Positions 1-23,285 of a stretch of 24,000 nucleotides of DNA are shown one piece after another. Numbering within the stretch: position 1 is the first letter of the stretch; every line of letters starts with the position of its first letter. Source of the DNA: Thermoplasmata archaeon (lineage in GTDB: Archaea > Thermoplasmatota > Thermoplasmata > RBG-16-68-12 > JAFNFQ01); assembly GCA_041489255.1 (NCBI GenBank), contig JBGPQV010000003.1, positions 53,448 through 77,447 on the forward strand, given 5' to 3'. A program made the position numbers and the translations under genes. The notes under the pieces were generated by a model. The model saw only the letters and a program-made list of their open reading frames with translations, was not told where the DNA came from and made no database searches.

Positions 1-96
1 GCTGCCTGACTACCGAGGCTGCGGTTGGTGAACCGGGGATTTGATACGCCCCAGGCTCTACAAAAGACTTATGAGCCTGCCAGCGAATCTTGACTC

Positions 97-2565
97 ATGG
101 GTCTGGAGGCGGGGACCGTGAGGACTGTCGCTGCGTTATTGGTTGGGTGCCTCTTCGTGAATTCCATTTCCGGCTATGTCATGCAGCAACCGCCGTCGCC
201 TCAGACAGTGACGCTGCCATGCACGTTCGAGGTCGCCCAGGGCGGGTCGAACCATGCAGTAGAGCCCGTCGAGCGGGCGCAGACAGTCAGCTCATTCTAC
301 AACTACTTCAGCGACAGCGCACACACGCCGTTCGCCGAGGCCTACGTGAGCGTGCTCTATCTCTATCTTGACACCGGAAGCAGCAGGTTGTACTTCGTGT
401 TCCACTTCAATGTCGACGGAAGCGGAACGCCTGATGCACTGACGGATGTTGAGCTGCAGGGAATCCCGGCAGGAGCTTCAGTGGCGGTCTCCGACGACCC
501 CGGGGAGTTCAACCTCGCGCGCAATCCCCAGGGCCAGTTCCATTACTTCACCAACACTGACGGCGGCGCCCTTGGACCGCTGCCGACGAGCAGCGAGTGG
601 ACCATGAAGGTGGACCTGACCCACTATGGCCCGGACCCGGCGCGCTACCAGCGCTGGGTCGATAGCGACGGTACTCACATCCCGCTTTCGATGACGGGGC
701 AGGTCACGATCGGGAGCGCATGCAACAAGCCGCCTGTGGCGAACGGCAGCGGGCCGTACATCGGCACCGAGGGGTCTCCGATCCTGTTCAACGCGAGCGG
801 TTCCTATGACCCCGACGGAGACGCGCTCACCTACGCATGGGACTTCGAAAACGATGGCACCACGGACATCACGACGATGAACGCCACGGTCAGCCACACA
901 TATCCTGATGACTTCAAAGGGAAAGCGAGGCTCACAGTCTCCGATGGGAAACTGCAGAATTCTACGACGGTCGACGTGGGCGTGAAGAATGTCTCTCCGT
1001 CAATAACCTTCGACTCAGTCACGGATTCTCCAGAGGGCGGTGTGATCACGCTGCAGTTCAGCATCACCGACCCAGGAGCAGATCCGGTGAATGTCACGGT
1101 GGACTGGGGAGACGGCCTCCCGCCAGAATTCATCGGCCCATGGTTCAACCCGAGCGGACAGACGGTGACCGCCACGTGGACTTACGGAGATGACGGCAGC
1201 TTCCCGCTCGAGATCACCGCAACCGACGACGATGGCGGGGTCGGGATGCTGGAAGGCAAGTTCGCGATAGTGCAGAACCTCCCGCCGACAATCATCGCAC
1301 TTTCATTCCCAGCCACCGCAGACGAGGGGTCGCTCGTCGACATGACCGCAACCGGACAGGATCCGGGGAGCGATGACCTCCGTTTCACCGTGGACTTCGG
1401 AAACGGCGAGGTGGAGTCGAGGGTTTTCTACAATGACGGGGCCCGCCCTGACCCGCCGCTGAGCCCGCTCGGGACGTTCCCGTTCGCAGCCACGTCCACA
1501 TTCACGGCATTCTACCCGCAGGACGGGGACTATGCCGGGGAGTTGACGGTGCAGGATGACGATGGCGGTAGTCTCGTGGTCACCTTCTACATCAACATTC
1601 AGAATGTTCCTCCGACGATTATCCCCTTCGGACCGGTCTATGTCGACGAGGGATCACCCGGCAGCATGACCGCCACCGCAACAGACCCGGGCAACGACAC
1701 GCTCGCATTCCATTGGGAGTTCGAACTCGGGCCCACCCTGGACGAGACATTCCCCGCAACCGGATCGCCAATGAGCGCCACCAGCACCGCCGCCTTCCTG
1801 TACGGGGATGACGGCAACTATTCCGTCCTCCTCACTGTGACAGATGAGAACGGCGCCTCTGCGGTGTATGAGACAGCGGTCATCGTCAGGAATGTCGCAC
1901 CGACCACGCGGATCGTCCAGGTCAACCGTCCAGGAACGTTCACGCTGCGCGTTGCGGGAGAGAAGTGGCACGATGTCGAAGGCATCTTCTTCATCAACGA
2001 CACTGTGCTCGGCGACCTGCGCATCGTCAGGATGCCGGGCTCCCCCGATGATCAGGCGATGTCAACGAACGTGACGGACCTGTTCCTATCGGCCAACTAT
2101 TCCGCGAGGATCGTGTACACACCAGAAGACGACCCGATCAACGGGCAGCCTAATGGCGCGAACCCCGTGTGGATCATGGTCGGGTCTCCAGGTGAGGAGC
2201 CGATCAGAATACACCACACGTTCAATGTCAACCACCCCGGGACCTACGTATGGGAGGTGGACCTCACGCCGTATGTGGCGAGATTGGCGGTTCAGTTCAA
2301 GGCGGTGGCGGTAGACCCGGGCAGCGACGACCTGACGTTCGAGTGGGACTTTGGGGACAACAGCACGATCCAGAACTCAACGGCGTTCAACGATGATGTC
2401 GGGCCGGACCCGCCAGAGAGCCCGGGCGGTACCTTCCCGTTCACCGCTGCGAGCGAGGTCAGCCATGCTTTCGCGAGCCCTGGAACCTATGTAGTCAGGC
2501 TGACCGTTCATGACGATGATGGCGGGAGCTCGACCACCAGTATGACCATCGCGATCCTTGGCTGA
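97..2565 (+). CDS. Secreted multi-PKD-repeat surface protein (822 aa)
   Basis: ATG at 97. The N-terminus has a hydrophobic signal-like segment (VAALLVGCLFVNSISG). At least five PKD-type repeats have cores WDFENDG, VDWGDG, VDFGNG, WEFELG and WDFGDN. Each is followed by a strand of the form [LI]T[VA].D[DE].G (LTVSDGK, ITATDDDGG, LTVQDDDGG, LTVTDENG, LTVHDDDGG). It is a single long ORF with no competing frame. Confidence 0.85.
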   Translation: MGLEAGTVRTVAALLVGCLFVNSISGYVMQQPPSPQTVTLPCTFEVAQGGSNHAVEPVERAQTVSSFYNYFSDSAHTPFAEAYVSVLYLYLDTGSSRLYFVFHFNVDGSGTPDALTDVELQGIPAGASVAVSDDPGEFNLARNPQGQFHYFTNTDGGALGPLPTSSEWTMKVDLTHYGPDPARYQRWVDSDGTHIPLSMTGQVTIGSACNKPPVANGSGPYIGTEGSPILFNASGSYDPDGDALTYAWDFENDGTTDITTMNATVSHTYPDDFKGKARLTVSDGKLQNSTTVDVGVKNVSPSITFDSVTDSPEGGVITLQFSITDPGADPVNVTVDWGDGLPPEFIGPWFNPSGQTVTATWTYGDDGSFPLEITATDDDGGVGMLEGKFAIVQNLPPTIIALSFPATADEGSLVDMTATGQDPGSDDLRFTVDFGNGEVESRVFYNDGARPDPPLSPLGTFPFAATSTFTAFYPQDGDYAGELTVQDDDGGSLVVTFYINIQNVPPTIIPFGPVYVDEGSPGSMTATATDPGNDTLAFHWEFELGPTLDETFPATGSPMSATSTAAFLYGDDGNYSVLLTVTDENGASAVYETAVIVRNVAPTTRIVQVNRPGTFTLRVAGEKWHDVEGIFFINDTVLGDLRIVRMPGSPDDQAMSTNVTDLFLSANYSARIVYTPEDDPINGQPNGANPVWIMVGSPGEEPIRIHHTFNVNHPGTYVWEVDLTPYVARLAVQFKAVAVDPGSDDLTFEWDFGDNSTIQNSTAFNDDVGPDPPESPGGTFPFTAASEVSHAFASPGTYVVRLTVHDDDGGSSTTSMTIAILG

Positions 2566-2665
2566 ACTGATTCCAATCAGCCACATCCATACGGCAAAGT
2601 ATTTTGTCAGGCCGAATATCGGTCGACAAAATGGGACTGCTCCATAGAACTCTTTGTCCGGTCTT

Positions 2666-2714
2666 GTCCCCCCAAGCTCCGCCCTGCAATACGGGCGGGG
2701 CACCTTTCCTTTTT
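2666..2714 (+). terminator. GC hairpin plus T-tract element, copy A (candidate terminator of the PKD gene; a second copy lies at 15166..15211)
   Basis: The stem ctccgccc (2677..2684) pairs with gggcgggg (2693..2700) around an 8-nt loop, followed by cacctttccttttt. The element lies about 100 nt after the stop codon at 2563..2565. Confidence 0.4.
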
Positions 2715-3126
2715 CCATTATGGGATAAATTCTTGTCCCGATTCCTGCACTCGCTCTCACAGGTGGAACATGGAAATTGAATGAACGAAGACTAGCCCTG
2801 AAGACTCACAGGAATCGCGGGCAAAGATGATCGCCGAAAATAATAGGGCGTTGAACCGATATGTGGCAGGAATTAGTAACCAAAGCCTAACGAAGGTGAA
2901 AGAGCGAGCCGATTCTCTCCAAATGGCCATGGATCAGTTGGGGAATGATGTGTGCCCGGCAGCTGCCGACCTCAACAAGGTAGCAAGCTGCGTGCGGCTG
3001 CCAACGTGGGACGCAATCTGCGAATCTCTTATCGTGAAAGCATATCCTCCCCATGGCTTAGCGGACTAGGTGACCACTTGATTGAATCTACCCTCTTGCT
3101 GCGCCTGCTCTGCGCCCAGCCGCGGT

Positions 3127-3672
3127 TCACAACTGCACGAAGAGGCAATTATAGACCGTCGGAGGTCCGGGCTCCCCCGGTGCATTGCCTTTCATGCCAG
3201 GCACTCTTAGGGAGAGTATCGACCATGGCAGCACCTCGATGCCTTCGTTCTCGAGTTGTCTCAGTATGCAGTCCTCCAGATGTTTCAGTCTGTCGGGCAC
3301 GATCTCGGGGTCCTGCCACCCTCTTTCCCCCAGCACACCCCAGTGGAACCTCGCAAGCGGCCGCGCCTTGCTGATGTGTATGAAGGCTTCGTAATCGCCC
3401 ATCCTTATCTGGCCCGGCTTCGTGCGAGGGTCCCTCGAAACAGGTTTCAGTCTCGACTCCGAGGTCCTTATCCAGTGGCATATGTCGTAGTTCCCATCTA
3501 GCCAATAATACGCGTTTACGCCGCATTCGTCTCTGATGCGTTGGCAAAGTCTCTCCACCTTGGCACAATCTCTCATCGTGAATTCGAACTTGGGGTCCAT
3601 CTTGTCGAAATCCATCGATGGATACATCTCTCTTGTCAGACGGATTATCTTGTCCGGAATCACGCTCTCCAT
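3127..3672 (-). CDS. Putative immunity protein, paralog 3 (orphan copy, 181 aa)
   Basis: ATG at 3670..3672, 16 nt downstream of the stop of the orphan toxin tip. By hand count about 155/181 residues are identical to the ORF at 4795..5340. It has no signal peptide. The block YYWLDGNYDICHWIR is shared, and the C-terminus is CLF-x-x-x. Confidence 0.75.
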   Translation of the reverse strand: MESVIPDKIIRLTREMYPSMDFDKMDPKFEFTMRDCAKVERLCQRIRDECGVNAYYWLDGNYDICHWIRTSESRLKPVSRDPRTKPGQIRMGDYEAFIHISKARPLARFHWGVLGERGWQDPEIVPDRLKHLEDCILRQLENEGIEVLPWSILSLRVPGMKGNAPGEPGPPTVYNCLFVQL

Positions 3673-3688
3673 TCAAATCATCTCATGG

Positions 3689-3871
3689 TTATTTCTGCTG
3701 TCGCCAATCGTTCACTGCTTTAATCCAGGCCCATACATTCTCATCTTTCACGGGGAAGAATGAAATTATCGAACCATCCGAAGCCCTTACAACAATTTTC
3801 ATCTCGTCGATGTCACGCATCCCTGGTCTATACGTGTATGTTCGTCTGACTGAATCTTGGCTTGCCAGAAT
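3689..3871 (-). pseudogene. Orphan 5'-truncated toxin C-terminal tip (60 codons plus stop), homologous to the last 60 aa of the giant protein
   Basis: My minus-strand translation is ILASQDSVRRTYTYRPGMRDIDEMKIVVRASDGSIISFFPVKDENVWAWIKAVNDWRQQK-stop. The giant protein tail is IKLDTNSGNLIYTYKPHMYGIDEVTIVVRASDGSIISFFPVQGENVWAWIKALNDWRQQI-stop, about 41/60 identical by hand. The frame is closed upstream by an in-frame TAG at 3872..3874. The fragment is too short to appear in the ORF track. Confidence 0.75.
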
Positions 3872-3927
3872 CTAACAGGAAATCGATATCCTGTAGAGAC
3901 CCGTCTTTCTGGCCCTCACATGACCAT

Positions 3928-4473
3928 TCAAATCCAGGAGAAGAGGCATTCGAACACTCTTGGCGGCTCTGGATTGTCGAACACCCGACCTCCCATGCCT
4001 GGCACTGGGCGGAGCAAGATATCCCTCGGAATGACCTCGATGCCCTCCGATCGTAGTTGGCTCAGTATGCACGTTTCAAGGGATTTCAGCTTTGCTGGCG
4101 GTTCGGGGAGTATCTCCCAGTGAAGCTTCCCTAGAACTTGCCAGGTCATTGCTGCCAGCGGGGCCGCCCTGCTGATATTCATCTGAACCTCGATGTCTCC
4201 AGTCCTATAATCCTCATGGCGAGCTTTGGGGTGCCCCGACACAGGCTTCTCCCTCGAGGTTGAGAGCCGTATCCAGTGACAGATGTCGTAGTTGCCGTCT
4301 AGCCAGTAATGGACGTTGACTTGACATTCCGATTCCAGGCGTCTGCAAAGCCTTTGCACCCTCGCAGGGTCGTCCTTTGAGCGCGCAAGGCGGGAATCCC
4401 TTTCGTTCACGTTCATGGTTGGATAAATTTCTCTTATCAAACGCATCAGGTCATCTGGGATTGCTGTTTCCAT
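3928..4473 (-). CDS. Putative immunity protein, divergent paralog 2 (181 aa from ATG 4473)
   Basis: The internal ATG at 4471..4473 gives METAIPDDLMRLIREIYP..., colinear with MQSVIPDKIMRLIREMYP... in the paralogs and the same 181-aa length. GGTGA lies 8-12 nt upstream. It shares HYWLDGNYDICHWIR and the C-terminal ECLFSWI. Roughly half its residues are identical to the other two copies. Confidence 0.7.
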   Translation of the reverse strand: METAIPDDLMRLIREIYPTMNVNERDSRLARSKDDPARVQRLCRRLESECQVNVHYWLDGNYDICHWIRLSTSREKPVSGHPKARHEDYRTGDIEVQMNISRAAPLAAMTWQVLGKLHWEILPEPPAKLKSLETCILSQLRSEGIEVIPRDILLRPVPGMGGRVFDNPEPPRVFECLFSWI

Positions 4474-4489
4474 CTCTGTCACCGTTTCG

Positions 4490-4794
4490 TCAAAACTGTT
4501 GAACCCATCTTGAGGGGCTTGGGTCTTGTGCCAAGAAATCCATCCTTGACCTAGTTCCGTGGCGGGAGGCAGCATCGCGCTGCAGCTGGAGGTACACCGT
4601 CTTCCTCCTTCCATCCCTTTCAAACTCCCCGAATATCGAACGGCCGATGTTCATTTGACCGCACGGATGGAATGCGCTTGGGGCATTTAAGCCATCATTT
4701 GGAAAGCAGTCAAATCTTTGCGCCCAATCTCTCTTCCATCGATTGGATGCGGTATCGGAGTCGGGCGTACTCGCCGCAGCCGCTCGGCTGCAAT
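4490..4794 (-). other. Possible second orphan toxin-tip remnant (open frame ending at TGA 4490..4492)
   Basis: An open frame ends exactly 16 nt upstream of the paralog-2 ATG, the same spacing as the other two tip/immunity junctions. Its tail ...SRWVQQF only faintly echoes ...NDWRQQI. It has no credible start codon (only TTG at 4816, inside the upstream gene). It cannot be resolved by eye. Confidence 0.25.
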
Positions 4795-5340
4795 TCATAT
4801 CGACGAGAAGAGGCAATTATAGACAGTCGGAGGTCCCGGTTGCCCAGGTGCATTACCTTTCATACTAGGTACTCTTAGGAAGAGAATCGACAATGGCAGC
4901 ACCTCGATGCCTTCATTCCTGAGTTGATTCAGAATGCAGTCGTCCAGCTGTTTCAGTCTGTCGGGCACATTCTCGGGGTGCTGCCACCCTCTTTCCCCGA
5001 GCACACCCCAGTCGAACCTCGCAAGGGGCCGGGCCTTGCTGATGAATATGAAAGCCTCGTAACTGCCCATCGTCTTCTCTTCCGGCTTCGTGCGAGGGTC
5101 CCTCGAAACGGGTTTCAGTCTCGACTCCGAGGTTCGTATCCAGTGGCATATATCGTAGTTCCCGTCTAGCCAATAGTACACGTTCACGCCGCATTCTTCT
5201 CTAATGCGTTGGCATAGTCTCTCCACCTTGGCGCTGTCTCTCATCGTGAACTCGAACTTGGGGTCCATCTTGTCGAAGTCCATCGATGGATACATCTCCC
5301 TTATCAGACGCATTATCTTGTCCGGAATCACGCTCTGCAT
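4795..5340 (-). CDS. Putative cognate immunity protein, paralog 1 (181 aa)
   Basis: ATG at 5338..5340, 16 nt after the giant gene stop (5357..5359). The spacer, read on the minus strand, is TCATGAGATGATCTGA and contains a GAGATGAT SD-like motif. It is a small cytosolic-looking protein and is paralogous to 3127..3672 and 3928..4473. Confidence 0.75.
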   Translation of the reverse strand: MQSVIPDKIMRLIREMYPSMDFDKMDPKFEFTMRDSAKVERLCQRIREECGVNVYYWLDGNYDICHWIRTSESRLKPVSRDPRTKPEEKTMGSYEAFIFISKARPLARFDWGVLGERGWQHPENVPDRLKQLDDCILNQLRNEGIEVLPLSILFLRVPSMKGNAPGQPGPPTVYNCLFSSI

Positions 5341-5356
5341 TCAGATCATCTCATGA

Positions 5357-8300
5357 TTATATCTGCTGTCGCCAGTCGTTCAATGCTTTAATCCAGGCCC
5401 ATACATTCTCACCTTGCACAGGGAAGAATGAGATTATCGAACCATCTGAAGCCCTAACGACGATGGTTACCTCATCAATACCATACATGTGAGGCTTATA
5501 GGTGTAGATAAGATTGCCTGAATTGGTATCGAGCTTGATGTCTCCCAACGGGGTATTTCTTAGACCGTCCCTGAGCAACTCCCAGACTTGTGCGTCGGTC
5601 ATTGCCGGAGGGAGCGTCTTTTCGATTGGATATCCAGTGATGGTCTTGCCCGTCGGGAAGAAGGATGTAATATCCTTATCCAAGCTGACTATGCTGCCTT
5701 CAATGTGGCGGCCAATGACATGGAACTGACCAAACCGCCCGTCTCCCATTTTGAGGACCGCGATGCCGTCGGGCAATCCGCTGGCCTTCCATGCTTTCAA
5801 CACTTCATCAGCGCCAGCACCTTCGTCGAGCGGGTTAGCACCGTTCTTCCTAACCCACGCTCCGAACCTTTCGAGGGCCCCAGGTTCGAGTTCGATTACA
5901 TCTTTTGTCACAGACCTCCAGACACCCTCTCGAATAGCTCTATCCGGAAAGGCGGCTTCGAAACCGATTACTTCAGCCTCTGGAAGTCTCAACAACGCCT
6001 TTGTCCTTCCGCGAAGGATGTCGTCTGATATGCCGAGGACATCCGCACTCCACTTGGTCATCAGCACCAAGCCCGCCAGCCCGATTCCGTTCGCGAACAT
6101 CTCCTCGAAGAAGCCTCCGAACAGCTCTGCAAGTGCGTAGCTGCCAGCGAAGATGGCACCCGCAAGGGCGAGTTTCACTGTGCATCGGCCGAAGTATTCA
6201 TAAGCCCTAGCTGCGAAACTGATGATTCTTTGGAGGGGACCGAGCTTGGAAAGTGCTTGAGTAATCATTGCCCCAATGTTTCCAGCTTCGAGGGCTCCTT
6301 TGACAGCGGCTCCCGCACCCGCCGTCACAATCATTCCGATTATATTTCCGATCCAATACCAGTAATTGAATGTCTCGTGATCATTGCTCATGTCCCAGGG
6401 ATCGTTGTCGCCGTCGGGAACCGGGTCGTAGGGATTGGCGTTTTCTGCTTGTTGAACTAAAGCGTCGTAGAGAGACCCAAGAGCGTTTCGCAATGTATCA
6501 CCGGGATTCCCGCTATTGAGCAGGTCATGCCCGAACGATGCGCCAGAATCGAACAGCGAACCTGCATTTTTCATAATGGACGGTATGCTCGTGAACATCC
6601 CCGAGAAACAATCCCACAAGCCGACTGCCATCCCTCCAACCTCTGGACCAAGATACTTGACCGTCAGGTCTTTCAGAAGGTCCCGAGCTCTGTCAAAATA
6701 TGTGTCTTGCTTGAGCCAGTAATGGTTTGCATTGCCGTTGACGTCCACCACATAGAAATCGACGGTCTTGCCCGTGAATGCATCCAAGAAGCCGATGCTG
6801 AAGTCCTTATTGCGAGTGTCGAAGATATTCGCATAGAGATCGTCGTTGGAATACTCCTTTCCATCAACGACAGTTATTAAGGACCCTAGCCCCACGTTGT
6901 CGGACATGACGATGGTGACGTGGACACACTTCAGCCCTTCCCAGCAAAGTGAGGTGGACCAAGACAAATCAATGTAAGGAACGACCAATTCCACTACGCT
7001 GGGTTCGTCATCTATGTCATCTTTCATCCTATCTCCATCGCTGTCCTGCTTTCTTGGGTCAACTTTCTGTAAGAACTCCATCAGATCATTTAGCCCGTCT
7101 CCGTCCGTGTCTTTCTTGTCCGGATCGGAAGTCACGTGGTAGCGAGTAAAGAGTGGCCTTATGGCCTCCGACACCATGTTCTGGGCGTGGACTGGAAGGG
7201 ATGTATCGTCGAGTATGCGGGTCATCTCGTAGACGTTCGCGACGGAGGTGAGCATGACCGTGTCCCATCCTAGGATCTCTATTCCGTCGAGCAGAAGGTC
7301 CCCGTCGCAATCAGGATTCAGCGGGTTAGTCACCCATCCATAAACACCAGTGACTTCTTCGCCATCTTTGAGTCCGTCGCCATCCGTGTCGGGTTCCAAC
7401 GGATTCGTCCCGTATCCACCGCCAGGATTCGGCTCCCCCAGGTAGCCCACCTCACCTAACTCTTCACCAGAATCCCAGACTTGGTTGCGCAAGGTGTCGT
7501 GCCAGCCATCCCAGAGTCCGTCCCCATCCGTATCAGAGAGCACGGGACTTGTGCGGTAGTTCCGTTCCCCCATCAGCTCGCCAGAATCCCATATTTGATT
7601 GGGAGTCCCCTGATTGTCATTCCAGCCGTCCCAGAGTCCGTCCCCATCAGAGTCTGGATCGCATGCGTTTATGAGGCTATCACCATCAGTGTCAACCCAC
7701 CAGTCTATTTCCGAACCATCTAAGATTCCATCTCCGTCACTGTCAGGATTTGTTGAGGAAAGGCACGAGTAGGCAGGTAAGCCCTCGATTCCGTCGCTCA
7801 GTCCATCGGAATCGGAATCCAGCAGATCTTCCGGCGTGTAATCTCTGCCGCCTAGAATCACGAGAATCGATTCGAGCAATAGATCGCCCTTGGTGCTCGA
7901 GTGGAACCGAATCGGTATGAATTGATAACCGTCCACATCCGGGTAGCTCGCCAGCAATGCGTTGATAGCGTCGGTATCCAAAAGCACAATCAGGTGGTCA
8001 GTCCATGGAAATGGGATGCCTGCATCAGGGCTGACATATCCCTCTTGCTTCCACTCAGGATTGTCATCCCCCTCTGATGTCACGATATTGATGGAGACAT
8101 CATGCGGATAATCTACGCAAAACATCTGATATACCAAAGAGCCCGAATCGGTAGTCCAATCAATCGATTCGAAGAAATTAACATCGTAGAGCAAAGCATG
8201 GTTTGCCCAAATTCGCGCGTCGTCGCTCGCGGCCCAATAGAATTCCCCGTTGAACATCCTTAGTATCATCCAGTATGTGGTTTCCGCTTCTAGCAGTACT

Positions 8301-11300
8301 GGGGAATCGAATCGAAACTCAAGCCAACCGTAGAGGGCGCCGGATACTTCGACTGAAGAAACGGCATAATCGCTTGCCAGAGGTCCAATTTCGCCGGTGG
8401 AGAGATCCCATGAGGCCGCCTCACCCAAGACGAGGTCGATCCATGCGGTTTCGCCAGTCGGAATGGCGTAGGCGACTGCGACTTTGACCGTAATTAGAGA
8501 TTGAGGCCCATCGCTGGAGGAAATGTAGAATGGGACGCCCGCCGCGTATCCGGCCCATCCGTCATCAGGAACATGCAGCCCCGGGAATGTTGGGTTGGAG
8601 TCATGAGAACCTGACCATTTGTGGGGCTGGAATGTCAGGACCACCCGCGGAGCATCCCAACCCATCACTGGTTTGACTTGTTCAAGAACCCCTTTCTTGA
8701 CGGGGACTTTCAGATAGAGCTCGGTGTCTCCGCCGGTGTCTCCGCCAGCATCCTCAAAGAGCGTCCATGTATACCAATACGTCCCCACCTCCGGAGTTGC
8801 GCATTGGCCTGCATCATTGGTGCTACAAAGCCACTTGGGCCATTCCTCATACGCAGCGGCGCCGAACTCGGTGCCGTCTTTCGCCCCATCTGCATCGAAA
8901 TCGCGCTGGAAGCTGTCAGCCATGGCGAAATCGCCTAGGGCGCCAGAAAGAGACCAGACGTAGTCATACGCGGTATTCCTCCAAGTCTCCTCACCGATGT
9001 ACTTATGTTTCATCGGAACCCATTCGCCTGCGTCCCCATTCCCATCCCAATGATACATCAAGAGTCCATCCTCGCCCACTGGATTCCCTAAGTTGTCGAC
9101 TGGACCCTCTGGATAACTGATTTTGACCACAGCGCGGTAGCCTTGAGCTGACGAGGTCTCCACGTGAATCACCTGCCCTACGAGCCCTGCATCAGTGAAT
9201 GTCTGAGAACCTTCGGTAATGGTGACCGTTGCGCCAGGGTCAGGCATACCAAAATCGAGGGCCACACTCACTCCAAGGTCTCTGTTGACTGCAATCACAT
9301 CAGGCTCGAAGTCGGACGGGAGCAGGATTCCGAGCGTTGGGTTTGCGGCAGCGTCTGGGTCGATGTCGTATTCTAGGTTGCGAACGTCAAGGCCATCAGG
9401 TATCAAGTCGTAATCTGTGTCAGCGTCTGCGGGGTTGGTGTTCTGAAGATATTCCTGTAGGTTCGTGAGAGTGTCCCCATCCTTATATTCGGAAGAGTCA
9501 TCATAGGTCGGCAATAGTCCGTATTTCACTTCCCAACCATCCGGCATCCCGTCAGGCTCTGTGTCCGCCTGTATAGGATTGGTGTCAGTCTGGATTTGCT
9601 CCACTGAATCGGTTAGCCCATCATTATCGCTGTCAGGTATGTTCGGATTGGTCTCAGCGGTTCCCTCCAGCCCCGTCCATGAGCCAGTATCTACGCGGCC
9701 GTCGATGTCACGATCTTCGAATTCCCCCTGTTCGATTCCATCGCTGTCAGTGTCAATCCACCCGTCGGGCAAACCATCTGAATCGCTATCCACATTCAAC
9801 GGATTCGTTACCGTAGTTGGGTCCTCATCCGGGACGAATCCTGATGGTGCTCCCAAGGTCTGCGAGTCCCCGTCATTCTGCCAATCCGCAAGAGAATCGT
9901 AGCCTTGAGGCCAAGGGAGCCCTGCTTCCTGTCCGTCTGTCAGGTGATCACCATCTGTGTCGCGCATACTTGGATTCGTTTCGATGTTGTCGACACAACC
10001 ATCGCGGTCTACATCCTCAGTGCCGTCCCATAAACCGTCGTCATCTGTATCTCTATCCAGAGGATTCGTGGTTGTGCTTGAATCGGAATCTCTCTTGGGG
10101 ATGCCAAATATGTCTCTGTCCAGTGTGTCGCCAACCTCCGGCAACCCAAGCTCAAGTCCATCAGGAAGCCCGTCACCATCCGTATCCGCAATCGAAGGGT
10201 CGGTTTCCTCTGCATCGATGTTGCCGTCAAGGTTCTTGTCCTCGCTCTCCCATCTGTCAATCAGTCCATTCCCTTCCGTTCCCTGGGGATTCGTTGCGGG
10301 ATCGTAGTCATCATGGTCAGGGTCAGGATTGCCGATCAGGTCATATCCGGGTTCCTGCCAGCTGAAAAGACAGCCTGACGCCCCCAAGCCACAATCCACC
10401 CATCCATCTGGCAGCCCATCCTTGTCTGTGTCTATGCTTGTGGGATTAGTCGTCACGGAGTCTGGGACATCATATCCTGGTACACCGGTCTCCACTCCAT
10501 CCCCCAATCCATCATCGTCCGTGTCGGCATCCAGAGGATTCGTTAGATAGGTATCACTACCTCGAACGGCTTCCTCGCCGTCCTTCACGCCGTCATCGTC
10601 TGAGTCATCATCCAGGGGGTTCGTTTCGCCTGGACCATCTCCATCATTCCATACGCCCGCATCTGTTGCGCCATTCAGGTTTCGGTCTTCGAACTCTCCT
10701 GAATTCCGCGTCTGATCGTCATTGAAGTCAATCCACCCATCGGGTAGCCCATCATTGTCCGTGTCCCAGCGGAGCGGGTCAGTGACCGTGCCTGGGTCCG
10801 AGTCGATTCCAAGAAGACCGACCTCCAGTCCGTCGGGCAATCCATCCCCGTCTGTATCTGCTTGAGATGGATTCGTCTCTCCTGGCCCAGAACCGGGGCC
10901 GCTTCCGGCATCCCATGCCCCGGTATCCACCACACCGTCGAGGTCACGATCCTCGTATTCACCGACATCGCGCAGGCCATTGCTGTTTAGGTCAAACCAG
11001 CCATCGGGAAGTCCGTCTCCATCCGTGTCTATAATAGTCGGGTTCGTGGTCGTTAATGGATCGGAGTCAGGGCCATAACTAACGCCATCGACAATGCCGT
11101 AACCCCACGGAGGGGATAGCGTGTCTGAGGCGCGCATCGGGGAGTCGTCGGTGAGCCCCACCTCCAACCCATCCGAGAGATGGTCGCCGTCCATGTCTGG
11201 ATTGAGCGGATCTGTGATGAATGTATCCTCGCCTGCGAATAGTTCTTCCCAGTCTGTCAAGCCGTCGTTGTCGGTATCATCGCTCGTCGGATTGGTTCCA

Positions 11301-13960
11301 TATAGTTCGACTTCGGCATAATCGAGCAGCAGGTCCCCGTCGGTATCGGGATTGTTCTTATTCAAACCATTCGCGTCCTCCCATTCGTCCCTCAGTTGGT
11401 CACCGTCTGAGTCCAGTTCGATAACGACTATGGCAGTGTCATCGCCAAAGGACCCAGAAGCGTCCGTTGCCGTGAGAGAGACCGTGTATGTCCCAGATAC
11501 TGTGAATGTATGAACGGTATTCGGCATCATTTCGTGAGGGCTGCCGTCGCCGAAGTCCCAGACGAAAGTGAGCGGTTCACCATCATCATCTTCCGCCTCA
11601 GCAGAGAATATTATGGGCGCAGCGGCGCCATGGATTCTCCGATCAGGACCTGCGAACGCAGTTGGCGGAGTGTTCGCGACTCTAATAAGGTGAGTATCAT
11701 AGGACACAAGCCCGTGCTTGTCCGTCACACGGAGGGTAGCCGAGTACTCGCCCCGAGAAGAATACCGATGCATTGTGCGCGAGCCCGAGCCCGTCGAAGA
11801 GTCGCCGAAGAACCAAAGATAGGAGAGGTCGGACAAGTCGTCCTGGCCGTCGGAGGAATGGATGCCGCTGAGTACCGATGCATGCGTCTCTGCTCCTAGG
11901 GAGAGGACCTCAAAGGCGGCATTCGGAGCAACGTTAGAGACCGTAACGCTATGGGTCTTGGTGCTCATGACCCCGTTGTCGTCAGTGACTGTTAGAATCA
12001 CGCCATAGCTTCCTTCCCGCCTGTAGGAATGGGTAGGCGAGACGCCTGAGGCCTTAGCTCCGTCTCCGAACTGCCAATAGTAGTCCAGAGCCGTGCGATC
12101 TGAAGCTGTGTCGGTCGAAAGGGAACCGTCATAGTACACCATCGTGTCCTCATCTACTTGGGAGGGTGTGAATGCGAAGTCAGCGTTCGGCGCCCCATTC
12201 GTCACACTGACACGTCTGCTGTTAGCGCCCCAGTCCCCCTTCCCGTCTGTGACCTTCAGCACTACGGTGTACGTTCCGGCGCGCAAGTACGCATGAGTGG
12301 TCGAGGCGGTGCTCGTGGTGGCCGTCACGCCGTCGCCAAGATCCCAAAAGAAAGATGGAGCCGGCGAGGAGGGCCCGTCGCTGTCCGCGTATATGCCCGT
12401 GAAGGTGAATGTCTGGTCCTCGGCTTTTGTCGCCGCGTTCACGTTGACGGCCGTAATCTCGGGAGCCTTGTTGTCCAGCACCCCGCCCTTGAACGTGCAC
12501 GTGGCAGTGTTCGTGCCCCCATCCCCATCGTCGGCCTTCAGGGTGACGGTGTATGTCGTCTTGGAGGAGGGGAATTTATGCGTCACGTTCCACCACACAC
12601 GGTAGGGGGAAACGTGGCTTGGGTTTGCGAACGTCTGGACAGCGTCAGCGCTCCCGTCCCCGAAGTGCCACGTTAAGGTGAGGGCGTCGGCGCCGACCTC
12701 ATGGGCAATCCCTTTGAGGACGGACGATGTCGCCCCGACGATTGATGCGTACGGCGCGCGGTTCTGCACGGTGACGGTCACGCTGGAAGTGGTAGAAGCC
12801 GAATGAGGATCGGTGACCGCGAGGTTCACCGTCGCGGATGTCTCATCGTACCATACATACGTTGGCCTGCTCCCTGTCATCGATGCACTACCACTCCACG
12901 AATAAGCCAAGGCGTCGGCATCGCTCGACGTATCGGTGGACGCGGTGGCATCGAAGAGCACTGTCTGTGCTTCCGAAACGGTGATTGAATTGCCTGCTGT
13001 TGCCGTCGGCGCTCCGTTGGCGACGTTCACCACATGCTGCGTGGTTGACGTGGCGTCGTTGTCGTCGCGGACGGTAAGCAGAACAGCGAAGTTGCCCGGA
13101 GATGAATACGCATGGGTGATGGTCCTACCTTGGCCATACTGCCCGTCTCCGAAATCCCATGCGAATGTCAGCGGGTGCCTAGTGATGGCGTTGCCCGGCA
13201 AGGCGTTGTCAGTTGCGGTGTCTGTTGAACCCGAGGCGTCGAACGTCACTACAGCATCCATGTATGGACTCGTAGGAGAATAGACGAAAGAGGCAGACGG
13301 ATTGGCATTCACAATGACCACGTTCCGAGTCGCCGTGTCGGCGTTCCCGGCTGCGTCTCGCACGATCAGGTGCACGCGATAGGTTCCTGCGTATCCATAG
13401 GAATGCGTCTCAATGCCTGCAGTGCTCGTTGCCCCGTCACCAAAATCCCATTCGTATCGGAGATCCTCTCGCGGGTATGTGGCCGGCCACGAGGTCGTGG
13501 CATCAAACTGAATGCTCTCGTCCTCCGCCACGCTTGCGGTGTCAGCCGGAGTCGTGAGGATGACTGCCCCGGGAACTCCCCCTGATCCGTAGCTCGGACT
13601 CTTGATGTGGATGCGGATTGTGTCCAGAGCCATCGTCCCAGTCGACTCTTCGGCAACCAAAGCCACGTCGTAAATCCCGTCCGTTGTGAACGAGTGTACA
13701 GGTGAAGGATCCGTCGAAGAGGTGCCGTCTCCGAAAAACCATGTGAAAGATAAGGCATTTCCGGGTTGCCCGGGGCTTGACCCACTTGAGTCAAACTCGA
13801 TGTCTTCTCCCGGATCTGCCGGGTCTGACTCTTCGGTTCCGTCGAGCGCATCCGCCACGGCGACAGGCGGCGGATAGCTCGCCTTGACAAGAGTTGTGGC
13901 GCCTGAGATCACGGTTATAAAGGCCAAAGCCAAAGCCATTAGACTTCTCATCCCGATCAT
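5357..13960 (-). CDS. Giant secreted polymorphic-toxin-like protein (about 2867 aa from ATG 13960)
   Basis: ATG at 13958..13960 is preceded by GAGGAGGA and followed by the signal-like MIGMRSLMALALAFITVISGATTLVKA. A PKD block (approx 11422..13860) has nine W-x-F-G-D-G-type cores. TSP3-like acidic Ca-binding repeats (DTDGDGLPDG, DTDNDGLTDWEE and similar) occupy approx 9385..11421 and 7010..7830. An unassigned module lies at approx 7831..9384. A hydrophobic Gly/Ala-rich segment lies at approx 6050..6640. A distinct C-terminal domain of about 230 aa lies at 5360..6049. The coordinates include the stop codon. Confidence 0.85.
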   Translation of the reverse strand: MIGMRSLMALALAFITVISGATTLVKASYPPPVAVADALDGTEESDPADPGEDIEFDSSGSSPGQPGNALSFTWFFGDGTSSTDPSPVHSFTTDGIYDVALVAEESTGTMALDTIRIHIKSPSYGSGGVPGAVILTTPADTASVAEDESIQFDATTSWPATYPREDLRYEWDFGDGATSTAGIETHSYGYAGTYRVHLIVRDAAGNADTATRNVVIVNANPSASFVYSPTSPYMDAVVTFDASGSTDTATDNALPGNAITRHPLTFAWDFGDGQYGQGRTITHAYSSPGNFAVLLTVRDDNDATSTTQHVVNVANGAPTATAGNSITVSEAQTVLFDATASTDTSSDADALAYSWSGSASMTGSRPTYVWYDETSATVNLAVTDPHSASTTSSVTVTVQNRAPYASIVGATSSVLKGIAHEVGADALTLTWHFGDGSADAVQTFANPSHVSPYRVWWNVTHKFPSSKTTYTVTLKADDGDGGTNTATCTFKGGVLDNKAPEITAVNVNAATKAEDQTFTFTGIYADSDGPSSPAPSFFWDLGDGVTATTSTASTTHAYLRAGTYTVVLKVTDGKGDWGANSRRVSVTNGAPNADFAFTPSQVDEDTMVYYDGSLSTDTASDRTALDYYWQFGDGAKASGVSPTHSYRREGSYGVILTVTDDNGVMSTKTHSVTVSNVAPNAAFEVLSLGAETHASVLSGIHSSDGQDDLSDLSYLWFFGDSSTGSGSRTMHRYSSRGEYSATLRVTDKHGLVSYDTHLIRVANTPPTAFAGPDRRIHGAAAPIIFSAEAEDDDGEPLTFVWDFGDGSPHEMMPNTVHTFTVSGTYTVSLTATDASGSFGDDTAIVVIELDSDGDQLRDEWEDANGLNKNNPDTDGDLLLDYAEVELYGTNPTSDDTDNDGLTDWEELFAGEDTFITDPLNPDMDGDHLSDGLEVGLTDDSPMRASDTLSPPWGYGIVDGVSYGPDSDPLTTTNPTIIDTDGDGLPDGWFDLNSNGLRDVGEYEDRDLDGVVDTGAWDAGSGPGSGPGETNPSQADTDGDGLPDGLEVGLLGIDSDPGTVTDPLRWDTDNDGLPDGWIDFNDDQTRNSGEFEDRNLNGATDAGVWNDGDGPGETNPLDDDSDDDGVKDGEEAVRGSDTYLTNPLDADTDDDGLGDGVETGVPGYDVPDSVTTNPTSIDTDKDGLPDGWVDCGLGASGCLFSWQEPGYDLIGNPDPDHDDYDPATNPQGTEGNGLIDRWESEDKNLDGNIDAEETDPSIADTDGDGLPDGLELGLPEVGDTLDRDIFGIPKRDSDSSTTTNPLDRDTDDDGLWDGTEDVDRDGCVDNIETNPSMRDTDGDHLTDGQEAGLPWPQGYDSLADWQNDGDSQTLGAPSGFVPDEDPTTVTNPLNVDSDSDGLPDGWIDTDSDGIEQGEFEDRDIDGRVDTGSWTGLEGTAETNPNIPDSDNDGLTDSVEQIQTDTNPIQADTEPDGMPDGWEVKYGLLPTYDDSSEYKDGDTLTNLQEYLQNTNPADADTDYDLIPDGLDVRNLEYDIDPDAAANPTLGILLPSDFEPDVIAVNRDLGVSVALDFGMPDPGATVTITEGSQTFTDAGLVGQVIHVETSSAQGYRAVVKISYPEGPVDNLGNPVGEDGLLMYHWDGNGDAGEWVPMKHKYIGEETWRNTAYDYVWSLSGALGDFAMADSFQRDFDADGAKDGTEFGAAAYEEWPKWLCSTNDAGQCATPEVGTYWYTWTLFEDAGGDTGGDTELYLKVPVKKGVLEQVKPVMGWDAPRVVLTFQPHKWSGSHDSNPTFPGLHVPDDGWAGYAAGVPFYISSSDGPQSLITVKVAVAYAIPTGETAWIDLVLGEAASWDLSTGEIGPLASDYAVSSVEVSGALYGWLEFRFDSPVLLEAETTYWMILRMFNGEFYWAASDDARIWANHALLYDVNFFESIDWTTDSGSLVYQMFCVDYPHDVSINIVTSEGDDNPEWKQEGYVSPDAGIPFPWTDHLIVLLDTDAINALLASYPDVDGYQFIPIRFHSSTKGDLLLESILVILGGRDYTPEDLLDSDSDGLSDGIEGLPAYSCLSSTNPDSDGDGILDGSEIDWWVDTDGDSLINACDPDSDGDGLWDGWNDNQGTPNQIWDSGELMGERNYRTSPVLSDTDGDGLWDGWHDTLRNQVWDSGEELGEVGYLGEPNPGGGYGTNPLEPDTDGDGLKDGEEVTGVYGWVTNPLNPDCDGDLLLDGIEILGWDTVMLTSVANVYEMTRILDDTSLPVHAQNMVSEAIRPLFTRYHVTSDPDKKDTDGDGLNDLMEFLQKVDPRKQDSDGDRMKDDIDDEPSVVELVVPYIDLSWSTSLCWEGLKCVHVTIVMSDNVGLGSLITVVDGKEYSNDDLYANIFDTRNKDFSIGFLDAFTGKTVDFYVVDVNGNANHYWLKQDTYFDRARDLLKDLTVKYLGPEVGGMAVGLWDCFSGMFTSIPSIMKNAGSLFDSGASFGHDLLNSGNPGDTLRNALGSLYDALVQQAENANPYDPVPDGDNDPWDMSNDHETFNYWYWIGNIIGMIVTAGAGAAVKGALEAGNIGAMITQALSKLGPLQRIISFAARAYEYFGRCTVKLALAGAIFAGSYALAELFGGFFEEMFANGIGLAGLVLMTKWSADVLGISDDILRGRTKALLRLPEAEVIGFEAAFPDRAIREGVWRSVTKDVIELEPGALERFGAWVRKNGANPLDEGAGADEVLKAWKASGLPDGIAVLKMGDGRFGQFHVIGRHIEGSIVSLDKDITSFFPTGKTITGYPIEKTLPPAMTDAQVWELLRDGLRNTPLGDIKLDTNSGNLIYTYKPHMYGIDEVTIVVRASDGSIISFFPVQGENVWAWIKALNDWRQQI

Positions 13961-14032
13961 CAATGTATCCTCCTCACGTCCCAACAATCCGCTCAATCCA
14001 ATTGAATGGGACGCACGGGGATAACCATCTAG

Positions 14033-14041
14033 CCTTAAATG
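14033..14041 (-). promoter_or_regulatory. TATA-like box candidate for the giant toxin gene
   Basis: The minus strand reads CTAAACATTTAAGG, about 75-80 nt upstream of ATG 13960 and only a few bp from the IS target-site duplication. Motif resemblance is the only evidence. Confidence 0.25.
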
Positions 14042-14045
14042 TTTA

Positions 14046-14053
14046 GTCTCCCG
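14046..14053. repeat. Target-site duplication GTCTCCCG (left copy)
   Basis: The identical 8-mer directly abuts both IS ends (14046..14053 and 15102..15109). Confidence 0.85.
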
Positions 14054-14071
14054 AACTGTGTTGAACAAATC
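14054..14071. repeat. IS terminal inverted repeat (left)
   Basis: AACTGTGTTGAACAAATC. It matches the reverse complement of 15084..15101 at 17/18 positions. Confidence 0.85.
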
Positions 14072-14109
14072 CCGTCTTTTTCTCCCTCCGACCTCCCGAC
14101 CTCCCGCCA

Positions 14110-15033
14110 TCAGGGCATCTGCAGGAGCATCGCGTAGACAGCGAACTTCGCCATGACCTCCCTGTACATCAGGTCGAGCCTCCTCGCCATCACGTTCTCC
14201 CCGAATATCCTCTTCTCGCCGGAGAAGGTCCACTCAGCCGCCCACCTCATCCCATACCCGTGTTTCTCCCTCCAGCCATCGTACCCGAGGGACCTGAGCT
14301 CCCTCACCGCCCTCGGCCTGGCCGATGAGCCCAACGATTTGCAGGTCGCACCAGCCTTGATCCTGATCCCCGCCCCGATTCCTTTGTCCTCCAGGAGCTG
14401 GAAGTTCGCGCGGCTGTCGTAGGCGGCGTCGGCGAGGACCTCCCGTATGCGCCCCTTCCCCAGGGCCCTCTCCGCCTTCTCCAGCAGGGCGGGGAACATC
14501 GTCGTGTCGCCTATCCCCTCGTCGGTAGCTTTCATCGCCACGGGCCCTCCGTCAACGTCCACCGCCAGGTGCACCTTTATCCAGCCCCGGTGGCGGTGCC
14601 ACTTCTCCCTCATCCACTCCCCCCTGTTCGTGACCTTGATTCCCGTGCTGTCGAAGGCGATCACGAACGGCCCGTCACCCTGAGGCGCGGGAATCTCAAG
14701 CTCCATGTCGGCTATCCGCCACCAGAGGGTCGTGTAGTCGGCAGGCCTGACCTTCCCCACGAACTTCGACATGCCGCAGAGGAAGCCCTCCATCTGCCTG
14801 TACTGCATCCTGAGGATCTGCCTGACGGCGGCGAGGAATCGCATCATGCTCTCGGGGAAGCCGTATGGACGCCCCCTCTTCCCGCCGTTCATCGTCCTCA
14901 GTTCGTCTTCCCACGAGTCCAGCCAGTCCATGCTGAGGTACAGCTCCCCCCGCCGGACGAGCCGCTCGTTGTACCCGGGCCAATTCCTCTTATCCTTGTA
15001 GTGCCTTTCACCCTCGCTCGGCATGGGTCCCAT
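14110..15033 (-). CDS. DDE transposase (IS4/IS5 superfamily)
   Basis: The N-terminal RNWPGYNERLVRRGEL motif is typical of IS5-like transposases. Acidic triad candidates lie in VIAFDSTGIKV and LADAAYDS, with the signature Y-x2-R-x3-E-x6-K in YGMRWAAEWTFSGEK. The start of the longest ORF at 15045 is TTG. ATG codons at 15033 and 15024 are more likely starts. Confidence 0.85.
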   Translation of the reverse strand: MGPMPSEGERHYKDKRNWPGYNERLVRRGELYLSMDWLDSWEDELRTMNGGKRGRPYGFPESMMRFLAAVRQILRMQYRQMEGFLCGMSKFVGKVRPADYTTLWWRIADMELEIPAPQGDGPFVIAFDSTGIKVTNRGEWMREKWHRHRGWIKVHLAVDVDGGPVAMKATDEGIGDTTMFPALLEKAERALGKGRIREVLADAAYDSRANFQLLEDKGIGAGIRIKAGATCKSLGSSARPRAVRELRSLGYDGWREKHGYGMRWAAEWTFSGEKRIFGENVMARRLDLMYREVMAKFAVYAMLLQMP

Positions 15034-15083
15034 CCCTGCTGACAAGGCAGGTTCTCATGCCGAGTTCCCACCATCAAACCATC

Positions 15084-15101
15084 GATTTATTCAACACAGT
15101 T
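15084..15101. repeat. IS terminal inverted repeat (right)
   Basis: GATTTATTCAACACAGTT. Its reverse complement matches 14054..14071 at 17/18 positions. Confidence 0.85.
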
Positions 15102-15109
15102 GTCTCCCG
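15102..15109. repeat. Target-site duplication GTCTCCCG (right copy)
   Basis: The identical 8-mer directly abuts both IS ends. Confidence 0.85.
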
Positions 15110-15165
15110 CAAATGGACGGAGTTAAATCGCCTAAAACGCGCTCGATTCGTCCATGTTCCATGCC

Positions 15166-15211
15166 GTCCCCAAAGCCTCCGCCCTGGCGGGCGGGGGCAC
15201 CTTTCCTTTTT
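15166..15211 (+). repeat. GC hairpin plus T-tract element, copy B
   Basis: The sequence is gtccccaaagcctccgccctggcgggcgggggcacctttccttttt. The stem 15176..15184 pairs with 15189..15197 around a 4-nt loop. It aligns with 2666..2714 at roughly 40 of 46 positions by eye, including an identical 18-nt 3' part, ggggcacctttccttttt. Confidence 0.6.
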
Positions 15212-15385
15212 ATGCGGTCTTAGGCTGGAAGTGAGGCTCGTCGAGGGGCTGCCGACTGATGCTGTAGACATGTTGAAGCAGTACCTCGCAGGACAGATCG
15301 GCACGATGGGGCTCGCAACACGACTCGAAGAAATACGCATGAAAGCCGCCACACTGCCGGGCTCGTTTCTCAAGCCATGATTTTG

Positions 15386-15400
15386 TCGATATGATATCGA
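15386..15400. promoter_or_regulatory. Perfect 15-bp palindrome TCGATATGATATCGA upstream of the zinc-ribbon gene (candidate operator)
   Basis: The palindrome was read directly from the sequence. It lies about 10 nt upstream of an A/T-rich TATA-like stretch (AAGTATTTTAT, approx 15408..15418) and about 47 nt upstream of ATG 15447. Confidence 0.3.
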
Positions 15401-15446
15401 GTTTGCAAAGTATTTTATGTCCAGGCGGAGGTAGTAAAGTCACATC

Positions 15447-18313: not shown

Positions 18314-18331
18314 GGTTTGTGGTGAGGCGTC

Positions 18332-21076: not shown

Positions 21077-21170
21077 TCGGGTTATTGTTGATGGCGACGT
21101 TCATCTGGGAATGCGAAGGCATATGTCCGACTATCGACATTCGAATTCAATCATTTGGAGGCAGTCGAAC

Positions 21171-23090: not shown

Positions 23091-23285
23091 GTGATCGTGG
23101 CCTGATCGCTGGCCAGACAGACCCGCTCTGAACCCCGCTGTGAACCGCCATCCTGACAAGGTTCTCTCGGCAGCGGATCGTCCATTGAGCCTACAGTTGA
23201 TCCGGCAAGAAGATACATCGGGTGGATGCCCATCTTCGAGGTTTATTGTCAGACTCTCCGGGCAGACCGGCCCAGCACGAATATG

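Follow-up and report, generated by a model that had tools for sequence, protein, structure and literature searches.

The region analysed here is a 24,000-nt stretch of DNA (the window) from a Thermoplasmata archaeon (GTDB RBG-16-68-12; JAFNFQ01), covering positions 53,448-77,447 of contig JBGPQV010000003.1 in assembly GCA_041489255.1. It carries a giant gene for a secreted protein that ends in a predicted toxin domain, three related immunity genes (imm1, imm2 and imm3) and, directly before imm3, a short remnant of a toxin tip. The toxin gene, imm1, imm2, the tip remnant and imm3 are all encoded on the minus strand. The features are given below in window coordinates, each with its basis in parentheses.

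5357-14233, minus strand: giant secreted protein with PKD/TSP3 repeats and a C-terminal toxin domain (ORF and translation)
5360-5770, minus strand: current toxin C-terminal domain, about 137 aa, with H-x3-R-H, T-x-x-F-P-x-G and C-terminal strands (family profile, invariant columns)
5341-5356, minus strand: 16-nt spacer from the toxin stop to the imm1 start, containing GAGATGATC (sequence)
4795-5340, minus strand: imm1, predicted cognate immunity gene, 181 aa (homologues directly behind the same toxin domain in two other loci)
4490-4794, minus strand: region before imm2, with an ORF end ...RWVQQF-stop; possible decayed second tip (tentative, profile-negative)
3928-4473, minus strand: imm2, divergent immunity paralogue, 181 aa, 51% identical to imm1 (alignment)
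3872-3927, minus strand: 56-nt junction from the imm2 stop to the remnant, its last triplet being the in-frame TAG at 3872-3874 (sequence)
3788-3871, minus strand: 5' part of the remnant, codons 1-28, 52% nucleotide identity to the current toxin (alignment, profile)
3689-3787, minus strand: 3' part of the remnant, codons 29-60 and TAA, 28/32 residues as in the current tip (alignment)
3673-3688, minus strand: 16-nt spacer before imm3, 14/16 as in the main spacer (sequence)
3127-3672, minus strand: imm3, intact orphan immunity gene, 181 aa, 155/181 identical to imm1 (alignment, dN/dS)
2593-2607, no strand assigned: left copy of the direct repeat GCAAAGTATTTTRT that bounds the toxin island (comparison with the sister species)
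15404-15419, no strand assigned: right copy of the direct repeat that bounds the toxin island (comparison with the sister species)

The longest ORF of the giant protein has 2958 aa, and the public gene call has 2867 aa with a start near 13960. PKD families are found in the protein in the gene call on an identical JGI contig. This 169.8-kb contig, which is identical to positions 1-7672 of the window, is one of four recorded contigs that carry the same array of toxin and immunity genes. The genome contains three copies of the immunity gene, all of them in this locus, and the interval between imm1 and imm2 is 321 nt. No further tip remnants were found 3' of imm3 (2566-3126). The otherwise empty 560-nt stretch between imm3 and a convergent PKD gene holds an 80-aa ORF (2827-3069, plus strand), which is called as a gene on a public contig without a family assignment.

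To collect relatives of the toxin domain, the last 240 residues of the giant protein were used as the query in an exhaustive HMMER search, which returned 49 proteins. A domain of about 130 aa forms the extreme C-terminus in 44 of the 49, whose lengths range from 110 to 3230 aa, and the trunks N-terminal of the domain vary (CARDB, fn3, PKD or TSP3 repeats). A common tip on varied trunks is a hallmark of a polymorphic toxin domain. Since the domain ends 44 proteins with unrelated trunks and has a linked downstream gene, we infer that the locus is a polymorphic-toxin system, and the domain is predicted to be a nuclease-type toxin. The current toxin domain in the window covers positions 15-143 of the 144-position profile (E = 7.8e-41), and the residues that are invariant in the family are H-x3-R-H, T-x-x-F-P-x-G, G-I and P-x-x-G-x-x-V. 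Pfam and NCBIfam gave no match for the last 499 aa of the toxin, and for Pfam this holds at E <= 1. Neither a word-based homologue search with the C-terminal domain nor a sequence profile search of the PDB found anything.

In the order of its motifs the domain looks similar to bacterial EndoU-type (BECR-fold) RNase domains, PF14436: His...His, [K/T]-S-x-F-P, a helix and strands ending in I-x-T-A-Y-P. Like EndoU tips, it also has a C-terminal position on giant secreted proteins. The invariant H, R-H and T-x-x-F-P-x-G occur in EndoU-like order, with their equivalence to catalytic residues judged by inspection only. With PF14436, 3 of 13 family members gave collinear but sub-threshold matches (14-16 bits, against a gathering threshold of 25.3 bits). 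The window domain differs from PF14436 in giving no Pfam match at the cutoff used above. When it was compared by hhalign with a true EndoU tip from the sister species, the probability was 13.8% and only the last hairpin was aligned. An AlphaFold model of the toxin domain has a pLDDT of 67 with a confident helix-plus-strands core, and this model had no Foldseek match in the PDB at E <= 0.001. Membership of the EndoU family was considered and not accepted on the basis of the sub-threshold Pfam scores, the hhalign probability and the lack of a Foldseek match. The identity of the toxin as an EndoU-like RNase is a lead, not a result.

In all three independent loci that have it, a gene of the 181-aa immunity family lies directly behind the same toxin domain: the window, a locus (L013) in Thermoplasmata archaeon SMAG_U8339 (DATEUK010000015; here G401) and a locus on a metagenome contig (L017). 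A fourth locus (L018), with a more distant toxin, has a different gene downstream. The product of imm1 is predicted to neutralise the toxin domain. The immunity family is very small, with five clusters among 5.8 billion proteins. Pfam and NCBIfam gave no match for any of the three immunity proteins, a word-based search with imm1 returned the window's own proteins only, and the same kind of search with a five-sequence immunity profile added only the G401 (L013) and L017 loci. In 401 genomes of the class, the immunity profile gave chance-level matches only. The model of the immunity protein (pLDDT 87) had no significant Foldseek match in the PDB. Crl-like Foldseek matches to the immunity protein were rejected as weak (E = 0.01, TM about 0.3).

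The original prediction was that the immunity copy behind the remnant is about 155/181 identical to the cognate one, and alignment of imm3 with imm1 gives this figure (86%). The two genes have the same length and a dN/dS of 0.25. With imm2 as the outgroup, 7 derived changes were assigned to imm3 and 5 to imm1. These data indicate that imm3 is intact and constrained by purifying selection. Similarity to the main module stops abruptly just past the imm3 stop codon, as expected for a cassette boundary. In front of both imm1 (5344-5352) and imm3 (3676-3684), GAGATGATC lies five bases before the ATG, and imm2 has GGTGA at the same distance from its ATG (4479-4483). These motifs resemble archaeal Shine-Dalgarno sequences and may serve in ribosome binding. 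Expression of imm3 could use read-through transcription together with the conserved spacer. In G401, the ATG of the immunity gene overlaps the toxin stop (ATGA) inside the same GAGATGAT string.

The remnant before imm3 had been described as 60 codons closed upstream by an in-frame TAG, and this was borne out on the minus strand: the frame at 3689-3871 runs from the TAG at 3872-3874 to its own TAA at 3689-3691. When aligned at the nucleotide level with the last 60 codons of the giant ORF, the remnant agrees without gaps at 41/60 residues and 135/183 nt. The runs VVRASDGSIISFFPV and ENVWAWIKA are identical in the remnant and the live tip. The predicted likeness of the two 16-nt spacers (3673-3688 and 5341-5356) also held, with 14/16 positions identical. 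Low-complexity sequence had been named as the alternative source of the similarity. A profile built from 44 unrelated family members matches the remnant with E = 4.7e-13, so the similarity is not due to low complexity. By megablast, the two blocks match each other over 649 nt without gaps at 89.4% identity; the offset between them is constant at 1668 nt. Close similarity between the remnant and the live toxin begins only at codon 28 (window position 3788), and over codons 1 to about 11 the similarity is near random.

Much of the toxin domain is missing from the remnant. The remnant covers only positions 92-143 of the 144-position profile, so that the whole N-terminal two-thirds of the domain is absent, and with it all invariant residues of the H-x3-R-H and T-x-x-F-P-x-G motifs (H, R, H, T, F, P and G). 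In addition, the remnant has Asp at two Gly positions that are conserved in 43/44 and 44/44 family members, and the full-length toxin retains both Gly. One Asp stands at the invariant Gly of G-I-D-E in the part formed by codons 1-28; the other is in the part formed by codons 29-60, where Gly is found in 44/44 members. Codons 1-28 still fit the family consensus (Y-x-Y-x-P, I-D-E-M), and there are no frameshifts or internal stops in the 60 codons. The truncated profile match, the missing motifs and the two Asp residues indicate that the remnant is a dead, decaying pseudogene which, to judge from its sequence, cannot act as a toxin. Read-through of the TAG (pyrrolysine-type) was considered and rejected because the frame upstream of the TAG does no more than overlap imm2, and in another reading frame.

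No pre-toxin homology was detected in the remnant, as no similarity to the live toxin was seen upstream of about 3850, and the 56-nt junction showed no similarity to the main toxin gene (9-12/30 nt matching). Since the remnant has neither pre-toxin sequence nor the N-terminal two-thirds of the domain, it is best regarded as a vestige and not as a reusable cassette. The original prediction had offered a role as a recombination substrate. This role found no positive evidence, because pre-toxin homology is absent and the longest identical run between the remnant and the live toxin copy is 28 nt. A crossover upstream of codon 43 would replace an invariant Gly of the live toxin with Asp. The suggestion that the tip and its immunity gene co-vary stood in so far as substitutions occur in both. 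It was not supported as matched, compensatory change: the tip decays, and the derived changes are split 7 and 5 between imm3 and imm1.

The region before imm2 may contain another trace of the same kind. An ORF of 108 codons (window 4490-4816, minus strand) ends in ...RWVQQF-stop exactly 16 nt before the imm2 ATG, which mirrors ...DWRQQI-stop before imm1 and ...DWRQQK-stop before imm3. A frameshifted VW-x-W-like stretch also lies before imm2. The family profile detected nothing in this region, and its DNA alignment is weak (19/43 nt next to the ATG). Tentatively, the ORF may be an older, heavily decayed tip remnant.

In the sister species (G001) both flanks are present, and the 12.8-kb locus at window 2566-15404 is entirely absent. 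The direct repeat GCAAAGTATTTTRT bounds the toxin island (2608-15403), which includes an IS-like ORF of 311 aa (14110-15045). G001 has a single copy of the repeat, which there connects the left flank (ATCCATGCGG...) with the right flank. The repeat looks like an att site or a target-site duplication of an inserted island.

Orphan modules were also found in two related archaea, G401 and G001, and it was only in these that alternative C-terminal domains were seen on one trunk; no alternative full tip was found on the window's own trunk. In G401, toxin and immunity genes are followed by an orphan module (L013 7937-8779) in which about 60 aa of a hydrophobic pre-toxin segment are repeated and then joined to a different C-terminal domain, with weak SfsA/Mrr restriction-endonuclease-like matches. 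Behind this orphan, a 355-aa ORF without a family (L013 8792-9859) is a candidate immunity gene. In G001 (L025 = C36:74351-77551; parts 1-1722, 1737-2324 and 2528-3200), a giant protein of 3888 aa with a true EndoU_bacteria C-terminal domain (37.5 bits) is followed by an unannotated ORF of 195 aa and an orphan. In this orphan the pre-toxin segment occurs again and is followed, beyond an apparent change of frame, by a second EndoU-like tip. Compared with these classical orphans, the remnant in the window is a more eroded vestige.

To examine the history of the remnant, the two blocks were compared along their length and with other family members. Identity has a change point at 3788: the 661 nt that follow it are 88.7% identical, and the 84 nt that precede it only 52.4% (Fisher p = 5e-14). 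In codons 7-28 the remnant agrees with the current toxin at 12/22 residues, barely more than with other family members (7-10/22). In codons 29-60 it agrees with the current toxin at 28/32 and with the others at 12/31 at most. These comparisons mark the remnant as a mosaic, in which the 5' 28 codons are roughly as distant from the current toxin as is the rest of the family. The dS of the shared block is 0.34-0.41 (0.34 for the immunity gene and 0.41 for the tip), and the dS of orthologues between this genome and the sister species is 0.11-0.27. On these values, the two modules are estimated to have separated no later than this genome and the sister species did. Codons 26-60 of the tip contain 4 nonsynonymous and 7 synonymous changes. 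Such counts would be unlikely (P = 0.036 with an average omega of 0.55) under neutral drift of one copy from the split onwards. The mosaic structure, the high dS, the sister species without the island and the low dN/dS of the tip together suggest that two alleles evolved apart in separate lineages, both functional at the time, until displacement placed them in one locus. We therefore favour displaced alleles over duplication in place, with gene conversion as a possible contributor. Of the two histories left open by the original prediction, an orphan remnant with its own immunity paralogue stands and the displaced former 3' end fits better; the mosaic, the dS values and the sister species without the locus speak against a simple duplication.

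Displacement of this kind is known from bacteria. In T6SS clusters of V. cholerae, effectors are displaced sequentially: an incoming effector/immunity module takes the place of the resident effector, whose immunity gene is retained (Kirchberger et al. 2017, PMC5361080). C-terminal displacement at Rhs loci is among the work cited in that paper (Jackson et al. 2009 and Koskiniemi 2014, cited in PMC5361080). In these systems, as here, a constant 5' gene gains a new 3' toxin part with its immunity gene, and the old immunity gene, often with a 3' piece of the old toxin, is kept downstream, which produces orphan immunity arrays. In contrast to the Rhs and T6SS cases, the locus belongs to an archaeon and its toxin is carried by a PKD/TSP3 surface protein instead of an Rhs/YD protein or T6SS effector, with no known delivery machine. 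The remnant also differs in being only 60 codons long and in having a close-similarity block that starts inside the toxin domain. Modules of the orphan cdiA-CT/cdiI and rhs-CT/rhsI type, which have reportedly been described in bacteria (Poole et al. 2011; Koskiniemi et al. 2014), resemble the window in placing a 5'-truncated toxin fragment and its cognate immunity gene downstream of an expressed pair. Classical orphans have a complete toxin domain and a conserved pre-toxin stretch, and they can be re-fused by homologous recombination. The remnant in the window has neither the complete domain nor the pre-toxin stretch; the orphans of G401 and G001 are of the classical type.

Polymorphic toxin systems have reportedly been predicted in archaea before (Zhang et al. 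2012). They are located in variable islands and consist of large secreted proteins, whose C-terminal nuclease-type domains vary, and of small neighbouring genes (PMC6393860). The window resembles them in its large secreted protein, variable C-terminal domain, adjacent small gene and variable island. It differs in that neither its toxin domain family nor its immunity family has a Pfam or NCBIfam model.

Taking these data together, we consider it probable that the remnant is a vestige of C-terminal displacement, accompanied by the retained orphan immunity gene imm3. The remnant would be the 3' end of an earlier toxin-domain allele. A newer tip/immunity segment would have replaced the 3' end of the giant gene and shifted the old end downstream, with the incoming DNA presumably joined by an illegitimate event to a point inside the older toxin domain, at the TAG junction near 3872. 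In this event the catalytic half of the older domain would have been lost, leaving the last 60 codons, the 16-nt spacer and imm3. We predict that imm3 is expressed and that it shields the cell from relatives that deploy the older toxin allele. The array of toxin, imm1, possible decayed tip2, imm2, tip3 stub and imm3 would then record two successive displacements, or else a single one, in which imm1 and imm2 arrived together from the same donor. No full-length toxin with a tip3-type end was found in any database searched, and so the donor and ancestor alleles can only be inferred. The lack in the remnant of the upstream pre-toxin homology that classical orphans keep counts against displacement, and the 89% block could stem from old gene conversion or from a non-tandem duplication.

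If the toxin end and imm1 had been copied downstream of imm2 by segmental duplication in place and had then diverged, two collinear blocks would be expected in one array of one genome, alike in spacer and gene length and alignable without gaps, and this is what is seen over 649-661 nt. The copy is not tandem, however, since imm2 and its upstream region lie between the blocks. Such a duplication also predicts uniform divergence, yet codons 1-28 of the remnant are toxin-family sequence with only 52% identity and retain the family-consensus Met at one position where the main gene has Val. Moreover, the dS between the blocks (0.34-0.41) is higher than that to the sister species, in which the locus is absent, and the dN/dS of the tip is below that expected for a copy dead since the duplication. 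We thus regard this history as unlikely, and equally unlikely its corollary that the extra immunity copy is a paralogue evolving a new or broader specificity. Gene conversion offers another route, by which tip3/imm3 was once as divergent as imm2 until it was overwritten by an old tract from the main module that started at tip codon 28 and took in the whole immunity gene. The sharp change point inside the toxin domain and the uniform dS across the block are what conversion would leave. The tract, however, ends exactly at the immunity stop, which is predicted for a cassette boundary and not for a random conversion end, and the intervening imm2 shows no such tract. We give conversion a low probability, and it would still imply a displaced orphan module, altering the history but not the nature of the feature.

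It is also improbable, to a clearly greater degree, that the remnant was kept for a function of its own, either as a translated 43-codon ORF coupled to imm3 or as a toxin 3' end that serves as the promoter or RBS of the immunity gene. An ATG-initiated ORF of 43 aa (3689-3820, ATG at 3820) does stop 16 nt before imm3, the GAGATGATC spacer is conserved at 14/16 positions, and the 60 codons are undisturbed. The ATG is nevertheless ancestral, because the full-length toxin has Met at the equivalent position, and the tip dS of 0.41 is not below the 0.34 of the immunity gene, so there is no extra constraint at the nucleotide level. The idea that the assembly placed two strain variants of a single tip/immunity region one behind the other draws on the nature of the genome (a metagenome-assembled assembly of 41 contigs) and on the 11% difference between the blocks, as strain variants might show. 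An artefact of this kind is very hard to reconcile with the unique and distinct imm2 module, with its clean ORF boundaries, that separates the blocks, or with the arrangement being shared by four recorded contigs, including the 169.8-kb contig that is identical over 7.7 kb, and we give it almost no credence.

As a vestige of displacement, the remnant is an ordinary by-product (debris) of a polymorphic toxin locus, and no new mechanism is needed to explain it. The locus is of interest because it offers a clear case from the archaea of the displacement by which arrays of orphan immunity genes arise in bacterial competition systems, the carrier here being a giant PKD/TSP3 surface protein in an uncultured Thermoplasmata lineage. 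The toxin/immunity family is archaeal, rare and undescribed. The analysis defines two families without a Pfam or NCBIfam model: the toxin domain of about 130 aa (44 representative proteins) and a very rare immunity family. The three immunity paralogues, two of which are 86% and 51% identical to imm1, form a panel for asking how much divergence immunity specificity tolerates.

A further reading, to which we assign little probability, concerns the unit that is inherited. The close similarity starts inside the domain (codon 28) and runs exactly to the immunity stop, which would fit a unit made up of the last 33 or so residues of the toxin (two terminal strands) and the immunity gene, not the whole domain. 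In classical systems, exchange occurs at the pre-toxin motif. If the immunity protein recognises the terminal hairpin, recombination within the catalytic domain would create new toxin/immunity specificities. Such a unit would, if true, be a different exchange grammar and a genuine co-inheritance of tip and immunity gene.

Other differences between the window and the sister species were seen around the island. About 690 bp of unrelated sequence lies behind the PKD gene in G001. A second segment of about 4.9 kb (window 18325-23260), which includes an ORF of 914 aa (18332-21076), has no counterpart in G001, where the flanks of this segment (window up to 18324 and from 23261) are about 100 bp apart.
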